Below, one piece after another: positions 1-6,942 of a stretch of 64,000 bases of DNA. The translations under genes and the position numbers were made by a program. The DNA is from Thermoplasmata archaeon (GTDB lineage: Archaea > Thermoplasmatota > SW-10-69-26 > JACQPN01 > JAJPHT01), in the NCBI GenBank assembly GCA_034667685.1, contig JAXDQU010000106.1:1-64000 (forward strand). Direction: 5' to 3'. Below the pieces are notes generated by a model. It was not told the origin of the DNA. It saw nothing but the letters and a program-made list of their open reading frames with translations, and ran no database searches. Position 1 is the stretch's first letter, and every line of letters begins with the position of its first letter.

Positions 1-465
1 CCCCCCGGGGCCCCCGGTCCTCCCGAATGCCGCGAGGCCCAGGACGAGGGCGGCGCCGACCACAAGAAGCAGTGCGAACGAGGCGGAGACGAGGACGCTC
101 GTGGGCGTGCGACGCAATCGAAGTGCGTCTCGGCGTGCGCCGCTCACATGGTGGCGAGCCGAAGGCGCATGATTTCGCAGAGTAGAGTCGGATTCAAGTC
201 CGAAAAGAAGGCAGGGCACACCCTGTTCAGCGAAGCTTGCGGGCATAGGACTCCTCCTCGTCGCGCATTACATACGCTCGTAGCGTCAAGAGTCGTCGTC
301 TTCTCTTGATGCCCAATCGTCTCCCATGCTTTCGGCCCAAAGAATCAAGATAGGGGCTTTGGGGCCGCGAAGCCCCCTAACGCTGCCGTCGCGCCTTTGG
401 GCGGGTTGTGGGACGATTTGCGCTAAATATGCGTCCGCTCTTCTGCGAACGAGAGGTCCGGTGCA

Positions 466-3411
466 TTGACCCGCAAGATTAACGTCGTCGAGCTTGGTGT
501 CTCGCTGCCGTCGAAGTTGCGGATAGGTTTCGTCCAGCTCCGCGGGCCTTTCCCAGAGGACAAACGCATTGGGACAGCTAAGGGTGGACGAACGGCGCTT
601 GTCTGGAGGTCTCCCGCTGCGCGGGAGCGTCGCCTCTCGCGCGCGCTCGCCCTCATTGACGCACTGAACTTGCACAAAGACAGTGAGTATCGACGACCGG
701 ACATCATCATTTTTCCGGAATACTCGATCCCTCTGACTCAGGTCAGCATTTCCGCGTTGCAGGCTAAGGCTGACACCAACAATCAGGTGATCATCGCCGG
801 CTCTGACAATATTGACGATGCGCCGGTTGCGGATGGCTGCATCATTATTCCAAAGCAAACTCCCAGGTTTGTCCGTAAGCTGCAGCCTTCGACCTGGGAG
901 CGCTTTCTTACTCCGGCGCCCCCCGATGCCCCAATCGACGTGTTCTCGTGGCAATATGGCGGCCAGCGTTATCTGCTCTCACTCCGGGTTTGTCTCGACT
1001 TTCGTGGCTTCAATGCGAACAGCTTCGACGCACCTGCTCTTGTTGTTGTCCCCATGCACTCCCGAGAGGTTCGGAAGTTCCAGGACGAGGCACACGACCT
1101 TCTCGGCAACTCAAAGCACGGCATAATCACGTTCCTCTGCAATGCGATTGGACAAAGCGCAGAGGGAAACTCAAGTGTCGTAGCTATGGCAACAATGGCG
1201 ACCGCGGACAAACCTGCAATTCAGTTCCCTCGCGATCGCGAAGCGTGCGCGGTTCTGGAAGTCGACCTCGACGATCTCCGAATGAATCGCGTGACCCCCT
1301 CGCACGTTCCAGAGCGAGGCGTGGGACTTGAATGGAAGTTCAAGATCTCTGGCGAGGGCGCCACAGCAACCATAGAAGATTGGATTGACGACTCGCCTGA
1401 TGCGTTGCCTATCATAGCAAAGCAAGGCGCAGAAAATACTCAGGCAGGATCGCTCTCCGCGGCTGCGTCTCGCCTGCGGATGCCCGAGACCGGTCCGATT
1501 CCAGGGTGGGGGGCCTTTACGCCCACCGACATCGGCTCACTGGCGGCCCTTTCGCCTGAAGAAAGTGTTCTCTTCTTCGACGGCGCTGTCCCAACGTGGC
1601 GGCACGCGGTATCAGACTCTATCCCTCGGCGTGAGGCCGTGTCCGAAACGCGCCGAAAACTCCATTCAGCGATCAATTCCAAAGCGCAACCATCGTTGAC
1701 ACTAATCAGAGCCGCCGGTGGTGAAGGAAAGACAACCGTCCTCTTGCAGGCAGCAATTGACGCTGCAAAGGCCCACGGGCTGGGGATTGTGTGGCGGCGC
1801 TTTCCAAATGCGAAGGCATCTCCCGATTCATTTCTTCAGTTGGAACCGGCGAAAGATTGGCTCGTCATAGTTGACGAGGCCGACAATGCTGTCCAGCTTC
1901 TGCGAGAGATTGGGGCCGCGCTTCATGAAGCGGATCGAGCAACTTTTCATTTCCTGATAGCTGCGAGGGATGCCGATTGGATCGCGGCTTCGGGGGATCG
2001 GATCGAATGGGAGCATTGGTTCAACGCACGAGTCGCGCACGACGAAGCAATTGTTCTACGTGGAATCACGAATGCAGACGCGAAAGCTATCGTTGGTGCG
2101 TGGAGCAAAGCTGGGTCCCAGGGCCTCCGGGACTTCGAGCGGACTCACAAAGACGATCGAGCGGAGAAGCTGGAGAAAGCGGTTAGAGATGCGCGGGTTG
2201 ACGACCGCGAACTGAACGGCGCAACTGGTGGCGCAGCCCATGGGTCATTCTTCGGCGGACTCCTCGCAACACGCTTCACAAACAAAGGACTCTCAGCCCA
2301 CGTTCGAAAGTTCTTGACCAATTTGAAGCGTATCAAGATCGAGGGTACGTCATCGACGCTCTTTGATGCATTGCTTCATGTCGCCGCCGTACACGGTGCG
2401 GGCGTCGGTGGCATCGACGAGAACGTTCTCGCTGACTTGCTTGGTGTCGACCGTGACCGCGTCTATTCAAGGGTGATTCGCCCACTGGGTGAGGAAGCGG
2501 CCGCCGTTCGGTCAAGTGGACGCGTCCTGACGCGGCATAGCCGCGTGGCTTCTGCGATTCTCGTGGAGGTTGAGAAGACCGGCCTCGGAAGTATCGAGGA
2601 AGTTTGGAGACGGACAGTCCGACAGACGGTTCTGACTTCGCGCGAGATTCGAACCGCAGAAACCTTCAGCAAGATCGTTCACGCGGGCCCGTGGTTGGCT
2701 TCGGCTCTCCCGGAAGAGCTTGCGCTCTCGCAACGCCGCGCGATTGCAATAGCCGCCGCGCGAGCGGCCGCGGCAGCACAACCCGAGCGCCTCGATGCGA
2801 TTGCAGACTTGGGGAAGACGCTTAGAGAATCCGGTCAGGCCGAGACCGCAAGCCAAGTGTTCCGAACCCAAACCCCGCGACCAGCTGACCGCGCGAAATT
2901 CGCAGACTTTGATGAGCACTTTAGGGGGACTCTCCATGAGTGGGGCGTGTGTGAGGCAGCCCGAGGATCGTCCCTCGATCACGCGCATGCCAACGCGTGG
3001 CTTAGTGGCCTATCACTCTCTGATGGCTGGGAAGACGTTGACATCGCGCCTCGGCAGGCCAAGCAGAGCCTTGCCGGCCTTGGCGCCGCGTTTGGCAGGA
3101 TAGTTCAGCAGAGTCATGACCCATTTGGGAAGGCACTGCGTGCCACGGCCTTCATCGGGAGACTCGTCAACCCCGACCAGACTACTCTGGGGTACTTCGA
3201 AAAGCATGATGCCTGGGCTGACGCCGTGCGAGCGCCCACCCCCGCGAGCTTGTCAGAAGCGGTTGCCTGGATCAAATTGGGGGTCGCTGCGTCCGGCCGC
3301 GCATTGGAGGACCCAATACTCGCAGGGATAGCGAAACCCGATGAGATTTCGTTCCACTTCTTCGAGGCACGCGTCCGGGCCCTCCGGCGTGCCGCTGGTG
3401 GAGTGGCCTAG
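466..3411 (+). CDS. Carbon-nitrogen hydrolase (nitrilase-like) domain fused to STAND-like P-loop NTPase and C-terminal helical/TPR-like repeats; putative defence/conflict protein
   Basis: Nitrilase triad motifs IIIFPEYS (Glu), RKLQPS (Lys), RVCLDF (Cys); Walker A AAGGEGKTT, Walker B LVIVDEAD; helical C-terminus; visibly lower GC and atypical codon usage; TTG start. Confidence 0.7.
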   Translation: MTRKINVVELGVSLPSKLRIGFVQLRGPFPEDKRIGTAKGGRTALVWRSPAARERRLSRALALIDALNLHKDSEYRRPDIIIFPEYSIPLTQVSISALQAKADTNNQVIIAGSDNIDDAPVADGCIIIPKQTPRFVRKLQPSTWERFLTPAPPDAPIDVFSWQYGGQRYLLSLRVCLDFRGFNANSFDAPALVVVPMHSREVRKFQDEAHDLLGNSKHGIITFLCNAIGQSAEGNSSVVAMATMATADKPAIQFPRDREACAVLEVDLDDLRMNRVTPSHVPERGVGLEWKFKISGEGATATIEDWIDDSPDALPIIAKQGAENTQAGSLSAAASRLRMPETGPIPGWGAFTPTDIGSLAALSPEESVLFFDGAVPTWRHAVSDSIPRREAVSETRRKLHSAINSKAQPSLTLIRAAGGEGKTTVLLQAAIDAAKAHGLGIVWRRFPNAKASPDSFLQLEPAKDWLVIVDEADNAVQLLREIGAALHEADRATFHFLIAARDADWIAASGDRIEWEHWFNARVAHDEAIVLRGITNADAKAIVGAWSKAGSQGLRDFERTHKDDRAEKLEKAVRDARVDDRELNGATGGAAHGSFFGGLLATRFTNKGLSAHVRKFLTNLKRIKIEGTSSTLFDALLHVAAVHGAGVGGIDENVLADLLGVDRDRVYSRVIRPLGEEAAAVRSSGRVLTRHSRVASAILVEVEKTGLGSIEEVWRRTVRQTVLTSREIRTAETFSKIVHAGPWLASALPEELALSQRRAIAIAAARAAAAAQPERLDAIADLGKTLRESGQAETASQVFRTQTPRPADRAKFADFDEHFRGTLHEWGVCEAARGSSLDHAHANAWLSGLSLSDGWEDVDIAPRQAKQSLAGLGAAFGRIVQQSHDPFGKALRATAFIGRLVNPDQTTLGYFEKHDAWADAVRAPTPASLSEAVAWIKLGVAASGRALEDPILAGIAKPDEISFHFFEARVRALRRAAGGVA

Positions 3412-3554
3412 TCGGGAAATGGGGGCGCGGGCCCGCCATTCGGACGGGTCCGCAGCAGACTGCGTGCGACGCACGCATCGCTCATGACGGAATCAACATC
3501 CCCACCAATGGAAGTTGGCCGAGAAAATAAGGGGCGCCCGCGGGCGCATCCCTG

Positions 3555-4037
3555 TTACTTCCCCGCGGCCGCCTTCTCCAGCTTCGCGATGTCGAGCTTC
3601 CGCATCTTCATCATCGCGTCCGTCGCCCGCTTCGCGACGGCGGGGTCGCGGTGGCCCAGCAGCTCGGGGAGGCGGGTCGGGACGATCTGCCACGAGAGGC
3701 CGAAGCGGTCGACGAGCCAGCCGCACATGCTCTCTTCGCCGCCTTTGGCCGTGAGAGCGCGCCAGAGCGTGTCGATCTGCTTCTGGGTCTTGACGCTCAC
3801 GAACATGGAGTAGGCGGGGGTGAGCTTGTAGTGGGGCCCGCCGTTCAAGGCGTAGAACTCGCGTCCCGCGAGGGTGAACGTGACCGACATCGGGTCGGCG
3901 TGCGTGACCTTCGAGTTGCGGAAGAGCGAGACGTAGAAGCGCGCGGCGTCCTCGGCGTCGTCGTCGAACCAGAGGAACGGCGTGACGCCTTCGACGGCGA
4001 TCTTCAGGGGCTTGGCGGCGGGCTTGGCGCGGGCCAT
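3555..4037 (-). CDS. VOC family protein (PhnB / 3-demethylubiquinone-9 3-methyltransferase-like)
   Basis: TPFLWFDDDAEDAARFY, ALNGGP, CGWLVDRFGLSWQIVP motifs. Confidence 0.9.
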   Translation of the reverse strand: MARAKPAAKPLKIAVEGVTPFLWFDDDAEDAARFYVSLFRNSKVTHADPMSVTFTLAGREFYALNGGPHYKLTPAYSMFVSVKTQKQIDTLWRALTAKGGEESMCGWLVDRFGLSWQIVPTRLPELLGHRDPAVAKRATDAMMKMRKLDIAKLEKAAAGK

Positions 4038-4043
4038 GCACGC

Positions 4044-4433
4044 TCAGCGCTTCGGCGCCGCAAAGCGTTGCTCCCGTTTCAGCTTCCCATCCTTGCCGTA
4101 GGTGCGCCAGAGCCCGACGCGCTTTCCGGCCAGATATCGCCCTTCGTCGAACAGCTTGCCGGTGCCGCCTTGATATCGTTTCCAGAGGCCGGTCTGCTTG
4201 CCGTCCTCGTCGAACCGGCCGCGCTGGCGCACGACGCCGTTGGCGGCGTACCAGGTCCAGAGCCCGACACTGGTCCCCGTCTCGAAGCGGCCGGAGGCCC
4301 ACGGCTTGCCGTCGCGGTGGTAGAACTTCCACGGGCCGTCGCGCTTGCGGCCGACGTACCGGCCCGCGCTCTTGAGCGTGCCATCCTTGTAACGCTCCTT
4401 GACGATCGGGCCGGGCTTGGCGCGGGCGGGCAC
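4044..4433 (-). CDS. MORN-variant repeat protein (YwqK-like)
   Basis: Repeated G-x-W-x-x-Y-x-x-x-G units; GTG start inferred. Confidence 0.75.
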   Translation of the reverse strand: MPARAKPGPIVKERYKDGTLKSAGRYVGRKRDGPWKFYHRDGKPWASGRFETGTSVGLWTWYAANGVVRQRGRFDEDGKQTGLWKRYQGGTGKLFDEGRYLAGKRVGLWRTYGKDGKLKREQRFAAPKR

Positions 4434-4614
4434 GGCGCGGGGAGGCGCGCGGCGGCGCAAAGCCTCTTCCGCGCAGGGGCATTCGGGCCCTCGGCTGGAC
4501 CGGTCAGGGCCTGCGGGACCACCCCGCGTGGGTTGTCGCTCCCGGCTTGGCCACGGGCCCAGCGCCCCAATCCGACGGTCCTATATAGGGCCGGGGAGGG
4601 AGGCAAGACCGACC

Positions 4615-5220
4615 ATGTCCCCCGGGTCCAGCCACCTTGCGGTCGGGAGCCTCTTCGTCCTCGCGGGCGCGGGCAGCCTGGTCGCGGGGCTGGTGCACGC
4701 ATCGTGGCTGCCGGCGTCCTTCCTGACGCTCACGGGCAGCTCGCTGGCGTGCATCGTGGGCTTCGTGCTGCTCCTGGGCGGGCTGCTCATGACGCTCTTC
4801 GCCTTCCAGCGCCACGAGCCGCCGGCCGACGTCGTGCCCGCCGAGGTGGCGTTCGCCTCGCGGATGGTCGTCGCCGACCCGCACGCCGCCGAGCCCGTGC
4901 CGACCCCGGCCCCCCGCCCCCGCGCCGCGCCCGCGCGCGCCCCCGCGCCGGCCCCCGCGCGCGCCAGCGCCCCGCGCCGGCCGCCCGCGGGCGCGACGGC
5001 TGCCGCCGCCTCCGCGGCGCCCGCCCCCGCCGTGGCCCCGACGCCCGGCCTGGACGAGCAGATCCGCGAGCTGACGCGCCGGATCAGCAAGGCGGGCGTC
5101 ATGCTCGCGACGGGCCAGATCAGCCAGCAGGGGTACGCGTCCTACGTCGACGACCTGAAGCGGCAGCGCGGCGCGCTGGAGGCCAAGCGCGTCGAGCAGC
5201 AGATGGGCACCGAGCTCTGA
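4615..5220 (+). CDS. Hypothetical membrane protein (2 TM helices, Pro/Ala linker, short C-terminal helical domain)
   Basis: ATG at 4615 downstream of TATA-like CTATATA at 4581; typical codon usage. Confidence 0.6.
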   Translation: MSPGSSHLAVGSLFVLAGAGSLVAGLVHASWLPASFLTLTGSSLACIVGFVLLLGGLLMTLFAFQRHEPPADVVPAEVAFASRMVVADPHAAEPVPTPAPRPRAAPARAPAPAPARASAPRRPPAGATAAAASAAPAPAVAPTPGLDEQIRELTRRISKAGVMLATGQISQQGYASYVDDLKRQRGALEAKRVEQQMGTEL

Positions 5221-5270: not shown

Positions 5271-6551
5271 GTGAAGCTGTACGAATACCAGGGGCGGCAG
5301 GTGTTCGAGCGGTTCGGCATCCCGACCCCCTCGGGCGTCGTCGTCTCCTCCATGGCCGACCTGGAGAAGGTGCGCGGCCAGCTGAAGTACCCGCTCGTGA
5401 TCAAGGCGCAGGTCCTCGTGGGCGGGCGCGGCAAGGCGGGCGGCATCCAGTTCGCCAACAGCTGGGACGAGGCCGTCGCCAAGACGCGCCAGGTCCTGGG
5501 CATGGACATCAAGGGGCTCACCGTCGAGAAGGTCTTCCTCGTGGAGAAGCTCGACTTCGCCAAGGAGATCTACGCCTCCGTCTCGCTCGACCGCGCGACG
5601 CGCAGCATGCTCATCCTCTTCAGCGAGGAGGGCGGCGTCGAGATCGAGAGCGTGCCCGACGAGAAGATCAAGCGCGTGCACGTGCACCCCGTCACCGGCT
5701 TCCAGCCCTACCACGCGCGCGCCCTCTTCCAGGGCAGCAAGCTCACCGGCGACGTGCAGAAGCAGGTCAGCGCGATCCTCGGCAAGCTCGTCGCCGCTTT
5801 CCGCGGCATGGACGCCGAGCTGCTCGAGATCAACCCGCTCGCCGTCACGCCGCAGGGCAAGGTCCTCGCCGCCGACGCGAAGGTCATCCTCGACGACGAC
5901 GCCGCCTGGCGCCACACCGACTTCGAGGAGCCCAAGGAGGACAAGACGCCCCTCGAGTGGGAGGCCGAGGAGAAGGGCATCGCCTTCATCCAGCTCGAAG
6001 GCAAGATCGGCATCATCGCCAACGGCGCCGGCCTCACGATGGCGACGCTCGACGCGATCAAGCACTACGGGGGCGAGCCGGGCATCTTCCTGGACCTCGG
6101 CGGCACCGACAACCCCGAGAAGGTGCGCGAGTGCGTGCTGCTCATGAAGAAGGCCGAGCCCACCGTCATGATGCTCAACCTCTTCGGCGGCATCACCAAG
6201 AGCGACACCGTCGCCAAGGGCCTGAAGATGGTCCTCGACCAGGAGAAGATCCCCTTCCCCATCGTGACGCGCATCAAGGGCGTCAACGAGGAGGAGGCGC
6301 GCGCCATCCTGAAGGAGGCCGGCCTCTACACGACCAACACGCTCCAGGAGGCGGCGAAGCTCACCGTCGAGATCGAGAAGCGCGTGGTGGGCAACGCGCC
6401 CCTCCCGCCGCTCTCGTACAAGGTCGAGGTGCCGGAGGCCAAGATGCCCGCCCGGCGCGCGAAGCGCGCCGCGCCCAAGAAATCCAAGTCCAAGCCCGCG
6501 AAGCGGGCACCCCAGAAGAAGCGCGCGAAGCGCGCGAAAGGAGGCCGCTAA
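5271..6551 (+). CDS. sucC: Succinyl-CoA synthetase beta subunit with Lys/Arg-rich C-terminal extension
   Basis: KLYEYQG, KAQVLVGGRGKAGG, EINPL, NGAGLTMATLD, NLFGGI motifs; GTG start after TTTTTATC promoter-like box. Confidence 0.93.
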   Translation: MKLYEYQGRQVFERFGIPTPSGVVVSSMADLEKVRGQLKYPLVIKAQVLVGGRGKAGGIQFANSWDEAVAKTRQVLGMDIKGLTVEKVFLVEKLDFAKEIYASVSLDRATRSMLILFSEEGGVEIESVPDEKIKRVHVHPVTGFQPYHARALFQGSKLTGDVQKQVSAILGKLVAAFRGMDAELLEINPLAVTPQGKVLAADAKVILDDDAAWRHTDFEEPKEDKTPLEWEAEEKGIAFIQLEGKIGIIANGAGLTMATLDAIKHYGGEPGIFLDLGGTDNPEKVRECVLLMKKAEPTVMMLNLFGGITKSDTVAKGLKMVLDQEKIPFPIVTRIKGVNEEEARAILKEAGLYTTNTLQEAAKLTVEIEKRVVGNAPLPPLSYKVEVPEAKMPARRAKRAAPKKSKSKPAKRAPQKKRAKRAKGGR

Positions 6552-6552
6552 C

Positions 6553-6942
6553 ATGGAGAACAACCCCCACTCGATCGCCGACGCCGCCAAGCAGCTCCGG
6601 GACGCCGCCAGCGAGATGGCGCAGAAGGTCGCCGAAGCCGCCAGCGCGGAGATGAAGATGGTCGCCGAGAAGGCGGCCGAGGCCGCCCGCGTCGCGGAGC
6701 AGAAGGCCGAGGTCCGGGTCCGCGCGGCCGCGGCCAACGCGGCGGAGAAGGTCGCGAAGAGGGTCGCGCCGAAGCCCGCCCCGAAGGCCAAGAAGGCCAA
6801 GCGCGCCGCGCCCGCGAAGAAGGCGAAGAAGGCCGCCAAGAAGACCGGCAAGAAGACCGCCAGGAAGGCGACGAAGAAGCCCGCGAGGAAGGCGGGGAAG
6901 AAGAGCGCGAAGAAGGCCAGGAAGGCCGGCAAGAGGCGCTGA
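6553..6942 (+). CDS. Small Lys/Ala-rich basic protein (histone H1-like low-complexity tail)
   Basis: AKKAKKAAKK-type repeats; sits tightly between sucC and sucD. Confidence 0.7.
   Translation: MENNPHSIADAAKQLRDAASEMAQKVAEAASAEMKMVAEKAAEAARVAEQKAEVRVRAAAANAAEKVAKRVAPKPAPKAKKAKRAAPAKKAKKAAKKTGKKTARKATKKPARKAGKKSAKKARKAGKRR

Follow-up and report, generated by a model that had tools for sequence, protein, structure and literature searches.

A nitrilase-like domain on an nSTAND5 NTPase in a Thermoplasmatota archaeon: a probable Avs-like immune sensor of horizontal origin

Innate immunity relies centrally on sensors of the STAND/NLR type, whose effectors decide how the cell dies or stalls; the NAD-destroying SIR2 is the usual output domain. 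The question raised by the locus studied here is whether a nitrilase can take that place. The gene lies at 466..3411 of the window, by which we mean the whole analyzed stretch of 64,000 nucleotides, the first 64 kb of contig JAXDQU010000106.1 (C106) of a Thermoplasmata archaeon from soil (GCA_034667685.1; 3.48 Mb in 124 contigs). Its open reading frame (ORF) is uninterrupted and intact, with 981 codons on the + strand, and the gene is present as a single copy in the genome. Its product is probably an Avs-like STAND immune sensor, a one-gene system whose effector is a nitrilase and which reached the archaeon whole by horizontal transfer. This interpretation had been proposed in an initial annotation of the sequence, and it is supported for the anatomy, the kinship and the origin of the protein.

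The N-terminal part of the protein (residues 1-330) was used in an exhaustive HMMER scan across 1.84 billion representatives. The scan found 91 clusters at E ≤ 1e-3, including 46 at E ≤ 1e-10 and 13 at E ≤ 1e-30, the query's own cluster counted. The query together with 46 family members (clusters at 50% identity) formed an alignment of 47 rows, to which the residue counts in the following list refer.

466..3411, + strand: whole gene, a nitrilase-nSTAND5-helical arm protein of 981 amino acids (ORF list and translation; TTG start, stop included)
505..1308, + strand: nitrilase-superfamily (C-N hydrolase) domain, residues 14-281, predicted effector (AlphaFold2 model, Foldseek, VIA-align, hhalign)
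718..720, + strand: Glu85 in the motif FPEYS, predicted catalytic (invariant in 47/47; aligned with the invariant 'PE' Glu of canonical CN_hydrolases)
877..879, + strand: Lys138, predicted catalytic (invariant in 47/47)
898..900, + strand: Glu145, predicted second catalytic Glu (kept in 46/47)
991..993, + strand: Cys176 in RVCLDF, predicted nucleophile (42/47, the others being two Gly and three fragments; exactly on the canonical invariant Cys)

The AlphaFold2 model of the nitrilase head constructed with the 47-row alignment had a predicted local distance difference test score (pLDDT) of 90.2 and a predicted template modeling score of 0.90; a single-sequence run of residues 1-330 reached a pLDDT of just 33. 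All matches listed by Foldseek against the PDB belonged to the nitrilase superfamily (best E 1.3e-9), and so did all 50 matches listed by VIA-align, which spanned model residues 14-281. The top VIA-align match was the formamidase of B. cereus (5g3o_F; Z 22.1, root mean square deviation (rmsd) 3.0, 225 residues aligned). The N-terminal domain thus models as a nitrilase fold, as had been predicted. The matching folds included those of canonical amidases (formamidase 5g3o, aliphatic amidase 2uxy/2plq, Nit2 2w1v and PH0642 1j31; Z 20.8-22.1, 220-231 residues aligned, rmsd 2.6-3.7), from which the query head differs in sequence (identity 13-20%) and in being fused to an NTPase (nucleoside triphosphatase). 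The structure of DRT1 was not among the PDB sequence or fold matches, and the PDB copy searched may not contain it. A phmmer search with the N-terminal domain alone against the PDB returned only an L5 match (E 1.6), which was rejected as chance, and NCBIfam gave nothing meaningful for the query or nine family members. A two-copy complex prediction of residues 1-300 with the alignment, scored 0.00 with controls not run, speaks neither for nor against pairing of the heads.

The catalytic residues were compared with those of known enzymes in two ways. When a profile of 15 domain-sized family members was aligned by hhalign with the three canonical CN_hydrolases of the archaeon's own genome (probability 93.7, E 1.8e-7), Glu85 and Cys176 fell exactly on the canonical Glu and Cys. 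In the HMMER comparison, the conserved Lys of the family profile fell on the Lys of the 'hrK.hL' stretch in Nit2 and Nit3, which we take to be the catalytic Lys of these enzymes. The putative tetrad Glu85-Lys138-Glu145-Cys176 thus appears, on these alignments, at positions equivalent to those of the canonical enzymes. The Glu, Lys and Cys motifs that had been read as intact at the N-terminus are present and conserved in the family, and the strict conservation of the tetrad across the family argues for catalysis. Four further residues of the head, Q24, W47, R56 and Y86, are invariant in a family-specific manner.

The head is followed by a linker, an NTPase core and a C-terminal arm, with invariance counted among 18 nSTAND5 proteins.

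1381..1572, + strand: linker, about residues 306-369, probably flexible (without Pfam cover; poorly conserved and gapped against the colinear relative P0093, described below)
1573..1998, + strand: nSTAND5 P-loop NTPase core, residues 370-511 (Pfam PF25199)
1573-1599, + strand: FFDGAVPTW, which opens the NTPase core (translation)
1621-1632, + strand: IPRR (translation)
1714..1737, + strand: Walker A, residues 417-424, AGGEGKTT (A417, G418, E420, G421, K422 and T424 invariant in 18/18)
1861..1875, + strand: Walker B, residues 466-470, LVIVD (L466 and D470 invariant in 18/18)
2023..3408, + strand: C-terminal helical arm, residues 520-981, predicted sensor (common to 90 nSTAND5 relatives)

The NTPase core was matched by the Pfam model nSTAND_NTPase5 (PF25199) at 113.2 bits (cut-off 34; E 1.2e-32). 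The motifs FFDGAVPTW..IPRR and Walker A/B, named already in the initial annotation, are all present, with GGEGKTT within nucleotides 1708-1740 and LVIVDEAD within nucleotides 1855-1887, and their key residues are invariant; to those listed for the Walker motifs are added F371, D372, G373, A374, P376, I386 and P387. In the AlphaFold2 model, pLDDT was below 50 from residue 320 to the model end. The Atlas model of the arm resembled other nSTAND5 arms with a TM score of 0.72 and the arms of MalT/LuxR-type AAA_16-TPR proteins with TM scores of 0.43-0.47. The only Pfam match of the protein besides nSTAND_NTPase5 was TPR_19, below threshold (E 0.23), and a sequence search of residues 341-981 against the PDB gave nothing at E ≤ 1. 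Of the TPR-like helices described earlier, the helical arm itself, of nSTAND5/MalT-like type, is thus retained, and the assignment to TPR is not fully confirmed.

A word-indexed search returned 90 proteins besides the query (P0003-P0092) with E from 3e-174 to 4.5e-50. In every one of them the match is confined to the NTPase and the arm, the C-terminal ≤67% of the query (about 64% of its length, at 24-48% identity), and none has the nitrilase head. Their N-terminal domains, according to precomputed Pfam, are the following.

SIR2_2: 78 of 90
metallophosphatase: 8 of 90
nucleoside deaminase: 1 of 90
OST-HTH only: 1 of 90
no N-terminal domain: 2 of 90

The SIR2 heads match the PADLOC models of pAgo-associated SIR2 and PDC-S65, and the metallophosphatase heads those named PDC-S60 and 'Effector'. 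The SIR2-nSTAND5 relatives have the NTPase, the helical arm, FDGA.P, IP and the Walker residues in common with the query; they differ from it in their SIR2, metallophosphatase or deaminase heads, and their source annotation reads 'SIR2 family protein' or 'P-loop NTPase'. We take the nitrilase for the effector because it occupies the slot in which the nSTAND5 family swaps enzymatic heads. The order of effector, NTPase and sensor, as originally proposed, is thus supported by the Pfam NTPase, the nitrilase-fold model, the conserved arm and the swapping of the head in 87 of the 90 relatives.

The same fusion was found elsewhere. P0093 (970 amino acids) is colinear with query residues 1-981, in the same nitrilase-nSTAND5 order, with 38% identity over 995 columns and the same Pfam NTPase. 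A Pfam scan of all 90 non-self clusters of the nitrilase family detected fusions of the nitrilase to a P-loop NTPase in five of them.

P0093: nitrilase-nSTAND5
P0095: nitrilase-NACHT-HEAT
P0103: nitrilase-NACHT/NPHP3_N
P0094: nitrilase-AAA_16/AAA_22
P0164: nitrilase-AAA_16-TPR

Other fusion partners of the nitrilase head in the 90 clusters were Schlafen AlbA_2 (n = 3), NUDIX (n = 1) and TIR/SEFIR (n = 1). In the FastTree phylogeny of the nitrilase domain, which included 44 tips after three of the 47 rows with more than 40% gaps had been dropped and from which P0164 is absent, the query joins P0093 (support 0.77), then P0094 (0.90), P0095 (0.96) and P0103 (0.59). P0095 is a protein of 1313 amino acids encoded by a genome of the same genus as the archaeon (G002, contig C110; L003 3892-7833). 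It resembles the query in its nitrilase head (37% identity; four-tip clade 0.96) and in the succession of nitrilase, P-loop NTPase and repeat arm, and is unlike it in having a NACHT NTPase, a HEAT-repeat arm and its greater length. Within a single archaeal genus, therefore, two species each have a STAND protein armed with a nitrilase, and the two proteins differ in their NTPase and sensor modules.

The gene lies at the extreme end of its contig, with just 465 bp of sequence upstream of it, and its GC content is sharply unlike the remainder, as would be expected if assembly or binning had wrongly attached a bacterial fragment to the archaeal contig at its end or had fused two unrelated genes. 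We regard such an artefact as extremely improbable. The junctions were checked on assembled contigs from two samples, without raw reads: X1, which may be the source sample, and X2, a soil sample of another study. A contig of 7238 nt from the separate assembly of X1 is identical to window positions 1-4888 (0 differences), and contigs of X2 are identical to the window over 585-1085, 1528-2312 and 2589-4827. The last of these, 2239 nt with 0 differences, extends from the sensor arm to the PhnB-like and MORN genes, so that both samples connect the gene to its neighbors and the chimeric join considered earlier was not found. P0093 is colinear through both domain junctions, and the GC content at third codon positions (GC3) is equally low, 56-64%, in each of the nitrilase, linker, NTPase and arm. 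A chimera is very unlikely because of this colinearity, the identical contigs and the uniformly low GC3 along the gene. The X1 contig starts at the exact base where C106 starts, at window position 1; that both assemblies break so close upstream of the gene may point to a repeat or a variable junction.

The nearest known relatives of the nitrilase clade were found among anti-phage reverse transcriptases. PADLOC models of RTasNitrilase, RT_UG5-nitrilase or Drt1a match 30 of the 47 family members (E 1e-5 to 4e-13), and the window protein matches the reverse transcriptase (RT)-associated nitrilase models weakly (E about 3e-4). As judged by these sequence matches, the nearest known nitrilases of the clade are those of the DRT1 and UG5/DRT11 systems, in agreement with the kinship to RT-linked defense nitrilases suggested earlier. 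The query protein itself has no RT domain in Pfam or PADLOC; therefore it is not a member of the DRT systems and has only the nitrilase clade in common with them. It also differs from DRT1 and UG5 in its predicted control by a STAND switch instead of protein-primed DNA synthesis and filaments. Weak head-only matches were obtained with two other PADLOC models: the LmuA model PDLC03850, presumably of the 'amidase' Lamassu type, matches the window protein at residues 4-116 (E 3.5e-4) and P0101 (E 5.6e-6), and CARF_m7--CARF_nitrilase (PDLC01989) matches P0143 (E 1.3e-6). The query, in contrast to these systems, is without a CARF domain or Lamassu partner genes.

The commonest architecture in the nitrilase clade is formed by proteins of about 770-870 amino acids without any Pfam match (P0097-P0182). 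In the last 160 residues, 45 of the 49 family proteins of 720-900 amino acids have an RNxxxH (HEPN-like) motif, and P0160 has a weak match to HEPN_RiboL-PSP. From these sequence features the P0097-P0182 type looks like an undescribed family of nitrilase-HEPN-like conflict proteins. An Atlas search with the C-terminal part of P0097 gave no usable match. Two further arrangements were observed around nitrilase-head genes. In a metagenome-assembled genome of an uncultured Pyrinomonadaceae bacterium (L004 2072-10358), a same-strand run of four genes, three of them nearly abutting or overlapping, encodes an AAA ATPase of MoxR type (a weak bpMoxR match below threshold), two proteins of 624 and 615 amino acids without Pfam match, and a protein of 1156 amino acids with DUF4062 followed by a nitrilase head; DUF4062 has reportedly been renamed the NADase NIR in a 2026 preprint. 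On a metagenome contig (L031 4319-7399), a nitrilase-head gene of 774 amino acids has, 60 bp downstream on its strand, a gene for a cold-shock-domain-TIR protein (233 amino acids). Related-locus searches with an 8-row alignment, each limited to one pattern, gave 7 and 12 loci, and among viral contigs 11 stretches fit the single peptide pattern, none of which encodes a relative of the N-terminal domain.

Because the nitrilase is so often accompanied by another candidate effector (RNxxxH, TIR/SEFIR, DUF4062, NUDIX or AlbA_2 partners), the protein could also be of immune type with its toxic output elsewhere, the nitrilase being an oligomerization scaffold or a module that makes or destroys a signal. 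The RNxxxH ends of 45 of the 49 proteins and the TIR/SEFIR, DUF4062, NUDIX or Schlafen AlbA_2 additions of others favor this alternative, as does the DRT1 paper, according to which the tetramer is built around the nitrilase domains and all contacts within it run through them (PMC13275509). The window protein, however, has no second enzymatic domain, the tetrad is strictly conserved across the family, and in UG5/DRT11 the nitrilase is required for defense, which the nucleophile mutation C876A abolishes (PMC13436386). On balance we find a scaffolding or signaling role with the output elsewhere unlikely, and retain the nitrilase as the effector of the protein.

The host is archaeal, as the genome carries an archaeal rRNA operon (small subunit, large subunit and 5S), and the gene is foreign to it in composition. 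GC of the ORF is 59.0% and GC3 61.7%, compared with a GC3 of 98% in the neighboring sucC and sucD and a genome mean GC of 71.1% (sd 2.8); only 12 of 3171 windows of equal length are as low or lower in GC. The markedly lower GC that had been noted relative to the neighbors is thus evident, and the difference in GC3 supports the horizontal acquisition postulated from it: the gene is bacterial-type and foreign in composition, and its horizontal acquisition by the Thermoplasmatota archaeon is supported. Windows of ≤60% GC occur in seven places in the genome, namely the nitrilase-STAND gene, the rRNA operon and five others.

C17:2-10 kb (L023): low-GC place
C42:8-14 kb (L024): low-GC place
C54:48-54 kb (L025): low-GC place
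C78:15-22 kb (L026): low-GC place
C118:17-22 kb (L028): low-GC place

Defense-type genes were found at four of these five coding places, the remaining one being without a Pfam match.

Low-GC place content: HATPase_c_3 protein, 550 amino acids
Low-GC place content: NNH3-NACHT-pentapeptide protein, 901 amino acids
Low-GC place content: ABC-3C CTD7 with DUF3732, beside a tRNA
Low-GC place content: GmrSD

With four of the five other islands being defense-type, the nitrilase-STAND gene looks like one of several imported defense-type genes. In this archaeon of 71% GC, low GC marks imported defense genes.

Of the 40 relatives searched, G002, which belongs to the same genus, was the only one with a match, and this was to the nitrilase head only. 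Synteny with the relatives is not kept, and the borders of an insertion could not be set. The PhnB-like neighbor has orthologs in G003 (75%) and G001 (65%), and no other gene of the window adjoins them. A Rfam scan of the whole window gave nothing at gathering score. Two observations concern the sucCD genes: an ORF of 129 amino acids (6553-6942, + strand) lies between sucC and sucD and has AKKA-type Lys/Ala-rich repeats in its second half, and the sucC frame ends, at about 6440-6551, in a comparable Lys/Arg-rich tail; the AT skew there is extreme, up to 0.68.

Alternatively, the gene could be a recent transfer from bacteria that is silent or non-functional in its archaeal host, a passenger on the way to decay. 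A GC3 of 62% against 98% in native genes means that it has not been ameliorated; it starts with TTG, no run on record as RNA contains it, and no ortholog turned up in 39 of the 40 relatives searched. Against decay, the frame of 981 codons is intact with every catalytic and P-loop residue kept, the identical sequence occurs in the second, independent soil sample (X2), and a relative of the same genus keeps a different intact nitrilase-NACHT fusion. A decaying passenger is therefore an improbable description of the gene.

The foreign composition bears also on a non-immune alternative, a ligand-gated metabolic or signaling switch in which the STAND part activates an amidase or nitrilase whose task is detoxification or the scavenging of nitrogen. 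MalT-type STANDs sense a small molecule or the cellular state, and enzymes of the nitrilase superfamily are mostly metabolic. The arm resembles those of MalT/LuxR-type AAA_16-TPR regulators to the degree given above, metabolic genes lie downstream, and the genome has three canonical nitrilase-superfamily enzymes. Nevertheless, a DNA-binding output domain is missing from the protein, 87 of 90 relatives bear a SIR2, metallophosphatase or deaminase head on this scaffold, and the nitrilase clade is closest to defense nitrilases and not to metabolic ones. The composition is that of a foreign gene, as in the four other low-GC islands with defense-type genes, and the gene was not found in 39 of the 40 relatives searched. 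A metabolic switch accordingly seems quite unlikely to us.

For the immune sensor preferred here, we infer the antiviral outcome, the trigger, the oligomerization and the substrate as follows. The C-terminal helical arm would bind a trigger, most likely a viral protein. Binding would free the nSTAND5 NTPase for NTP binding and oligomerization, as suggested by the biology of STAND proteins. Oligomerization would gather the N-terminal nitrilase domains and, as enzymes of the nitrilase superfamily must assemble into oligomers for activity, switch on the Glu85-Lys138-Glu145-Cys176 site. The active nitrilase could then cleave a C-N bond of an essential molecule, and the growth of the infected cell would stop. 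Candidate substrates would be nucleotides or cofactors with an amide or amine group, NAD+ for instance, or side-chain amides of proteins. Activation by STAND oligomerization, itself a presumed step, would fit the statement in the DRT1 paper that nitrilase activity requires oligomeric assembly (PMC13275509). In that same paper the nitrilase of DRT1 is named an effector domain and is activated by DNA synthesis, with its substrate left open, and nitrilases are called uncommon in anti-phage defense.

Avs/AVAST proteins resemble the query in that a single protein combines an enzymatic effector, a STAND NTPase and a sensor; this applies also to EfAvs5, a SIR2-NOD-sensor protein that is reported to be activated by filamentation (PMC11897194). 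The query differs from them in its nSTAND5-type NTPase, its nitrilase effector and its archaeal host. By sequence, the nitrilase domains nearest to that of the query are those of DRT1 and UG5/DRT11. The combination is rare, and no paper on a nitrilase-STAND fusion was found in the literature searched. The word 'nitrilase' is absent from PMC7159879 and PMC8195603, and likewise from the main text and seven supplementary files of a 2026 STAND survey, whose other supplements may list effectors. The claim that the combination is not among characterized Avs types agrees with its absence from these surveys and with the lack of a PADLOC Avs match.

Several results weigh against an Avs-like nitrilase effector. 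PADLOC v2.0.0 gave no Avs match for the query at E ≤ 1, nor for ten relatives at E ≤ 0.01, with a library that does not include the Avs families defined in 2026 (PMC13581612). Functional work on the query, P0093 or any nSTAND5 protein was not found. In the nitrilase head, Lys138 and Glu145 are placed one column away from the canonical residues in the hhalign comparison, and matches by sequence with solved nitrilases are no more than marginal (best E 4.8e-4, for the family profile). The Pfam model CN_hydrolase (PF00795) does not match the window protein at E ≤ 1, so that membership in the superfamily rests on fold and profile-profile evidence; the model matches three of the 90 family clusters at E ≤ 1e-3, missing 87, and only P0126 exceeds its cut-off (24.4 vs 23.2 bits). 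The RNxxxH ends of the 45 proteins mean that the nitrilase may not always be the sole effector. Around the gene, the downstream genes (PhnB-like, MORN, sucCD, AHSA1-like, M48 peptidase and MeaB) are ordinary, and a defense-island context cannot be shown because the contig ends 465 bp upstream. The absence of the gene from runs on record as RNA belongs here as well.

A wider interpretation can be put forward tentatively: the nitrilase head may be a widespread immune effector module that Pfam hardly ever recognizes and that performs proximity-activated hydrolysis of amides or amines in bacteria and archaea. It is possible, if doubtful, that its chemistry provides a new route of abortive infection, for example by deamidation of NAD+, with nSTAND5, NACHT, AAA_16, TIR/SEFIR, DUF4062, NUDIX and most of all HEPN-like ends as partners. 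To our knowledge, tests of nitrilase effectors have been confined to the reverse-transcriptase systems DRT1 and UG5/DRT11. A nitrilase on a STAND switch would add an effector class to the Avs-like repertoire, and NTPase switches of at least three kinds have recruited the same nitrilase clade. A ligand-gated STAND switch would offer a simpler handle on the substrate than the RT systems, and the nitrilase-STAND protein, if read correctly here, could reveal the substrate of the DRT1 and DRT11 nitrilases. The gene would also illustrate the capture of an immune gene of bacterial type by an archaeon of the Thermoplasmatota.

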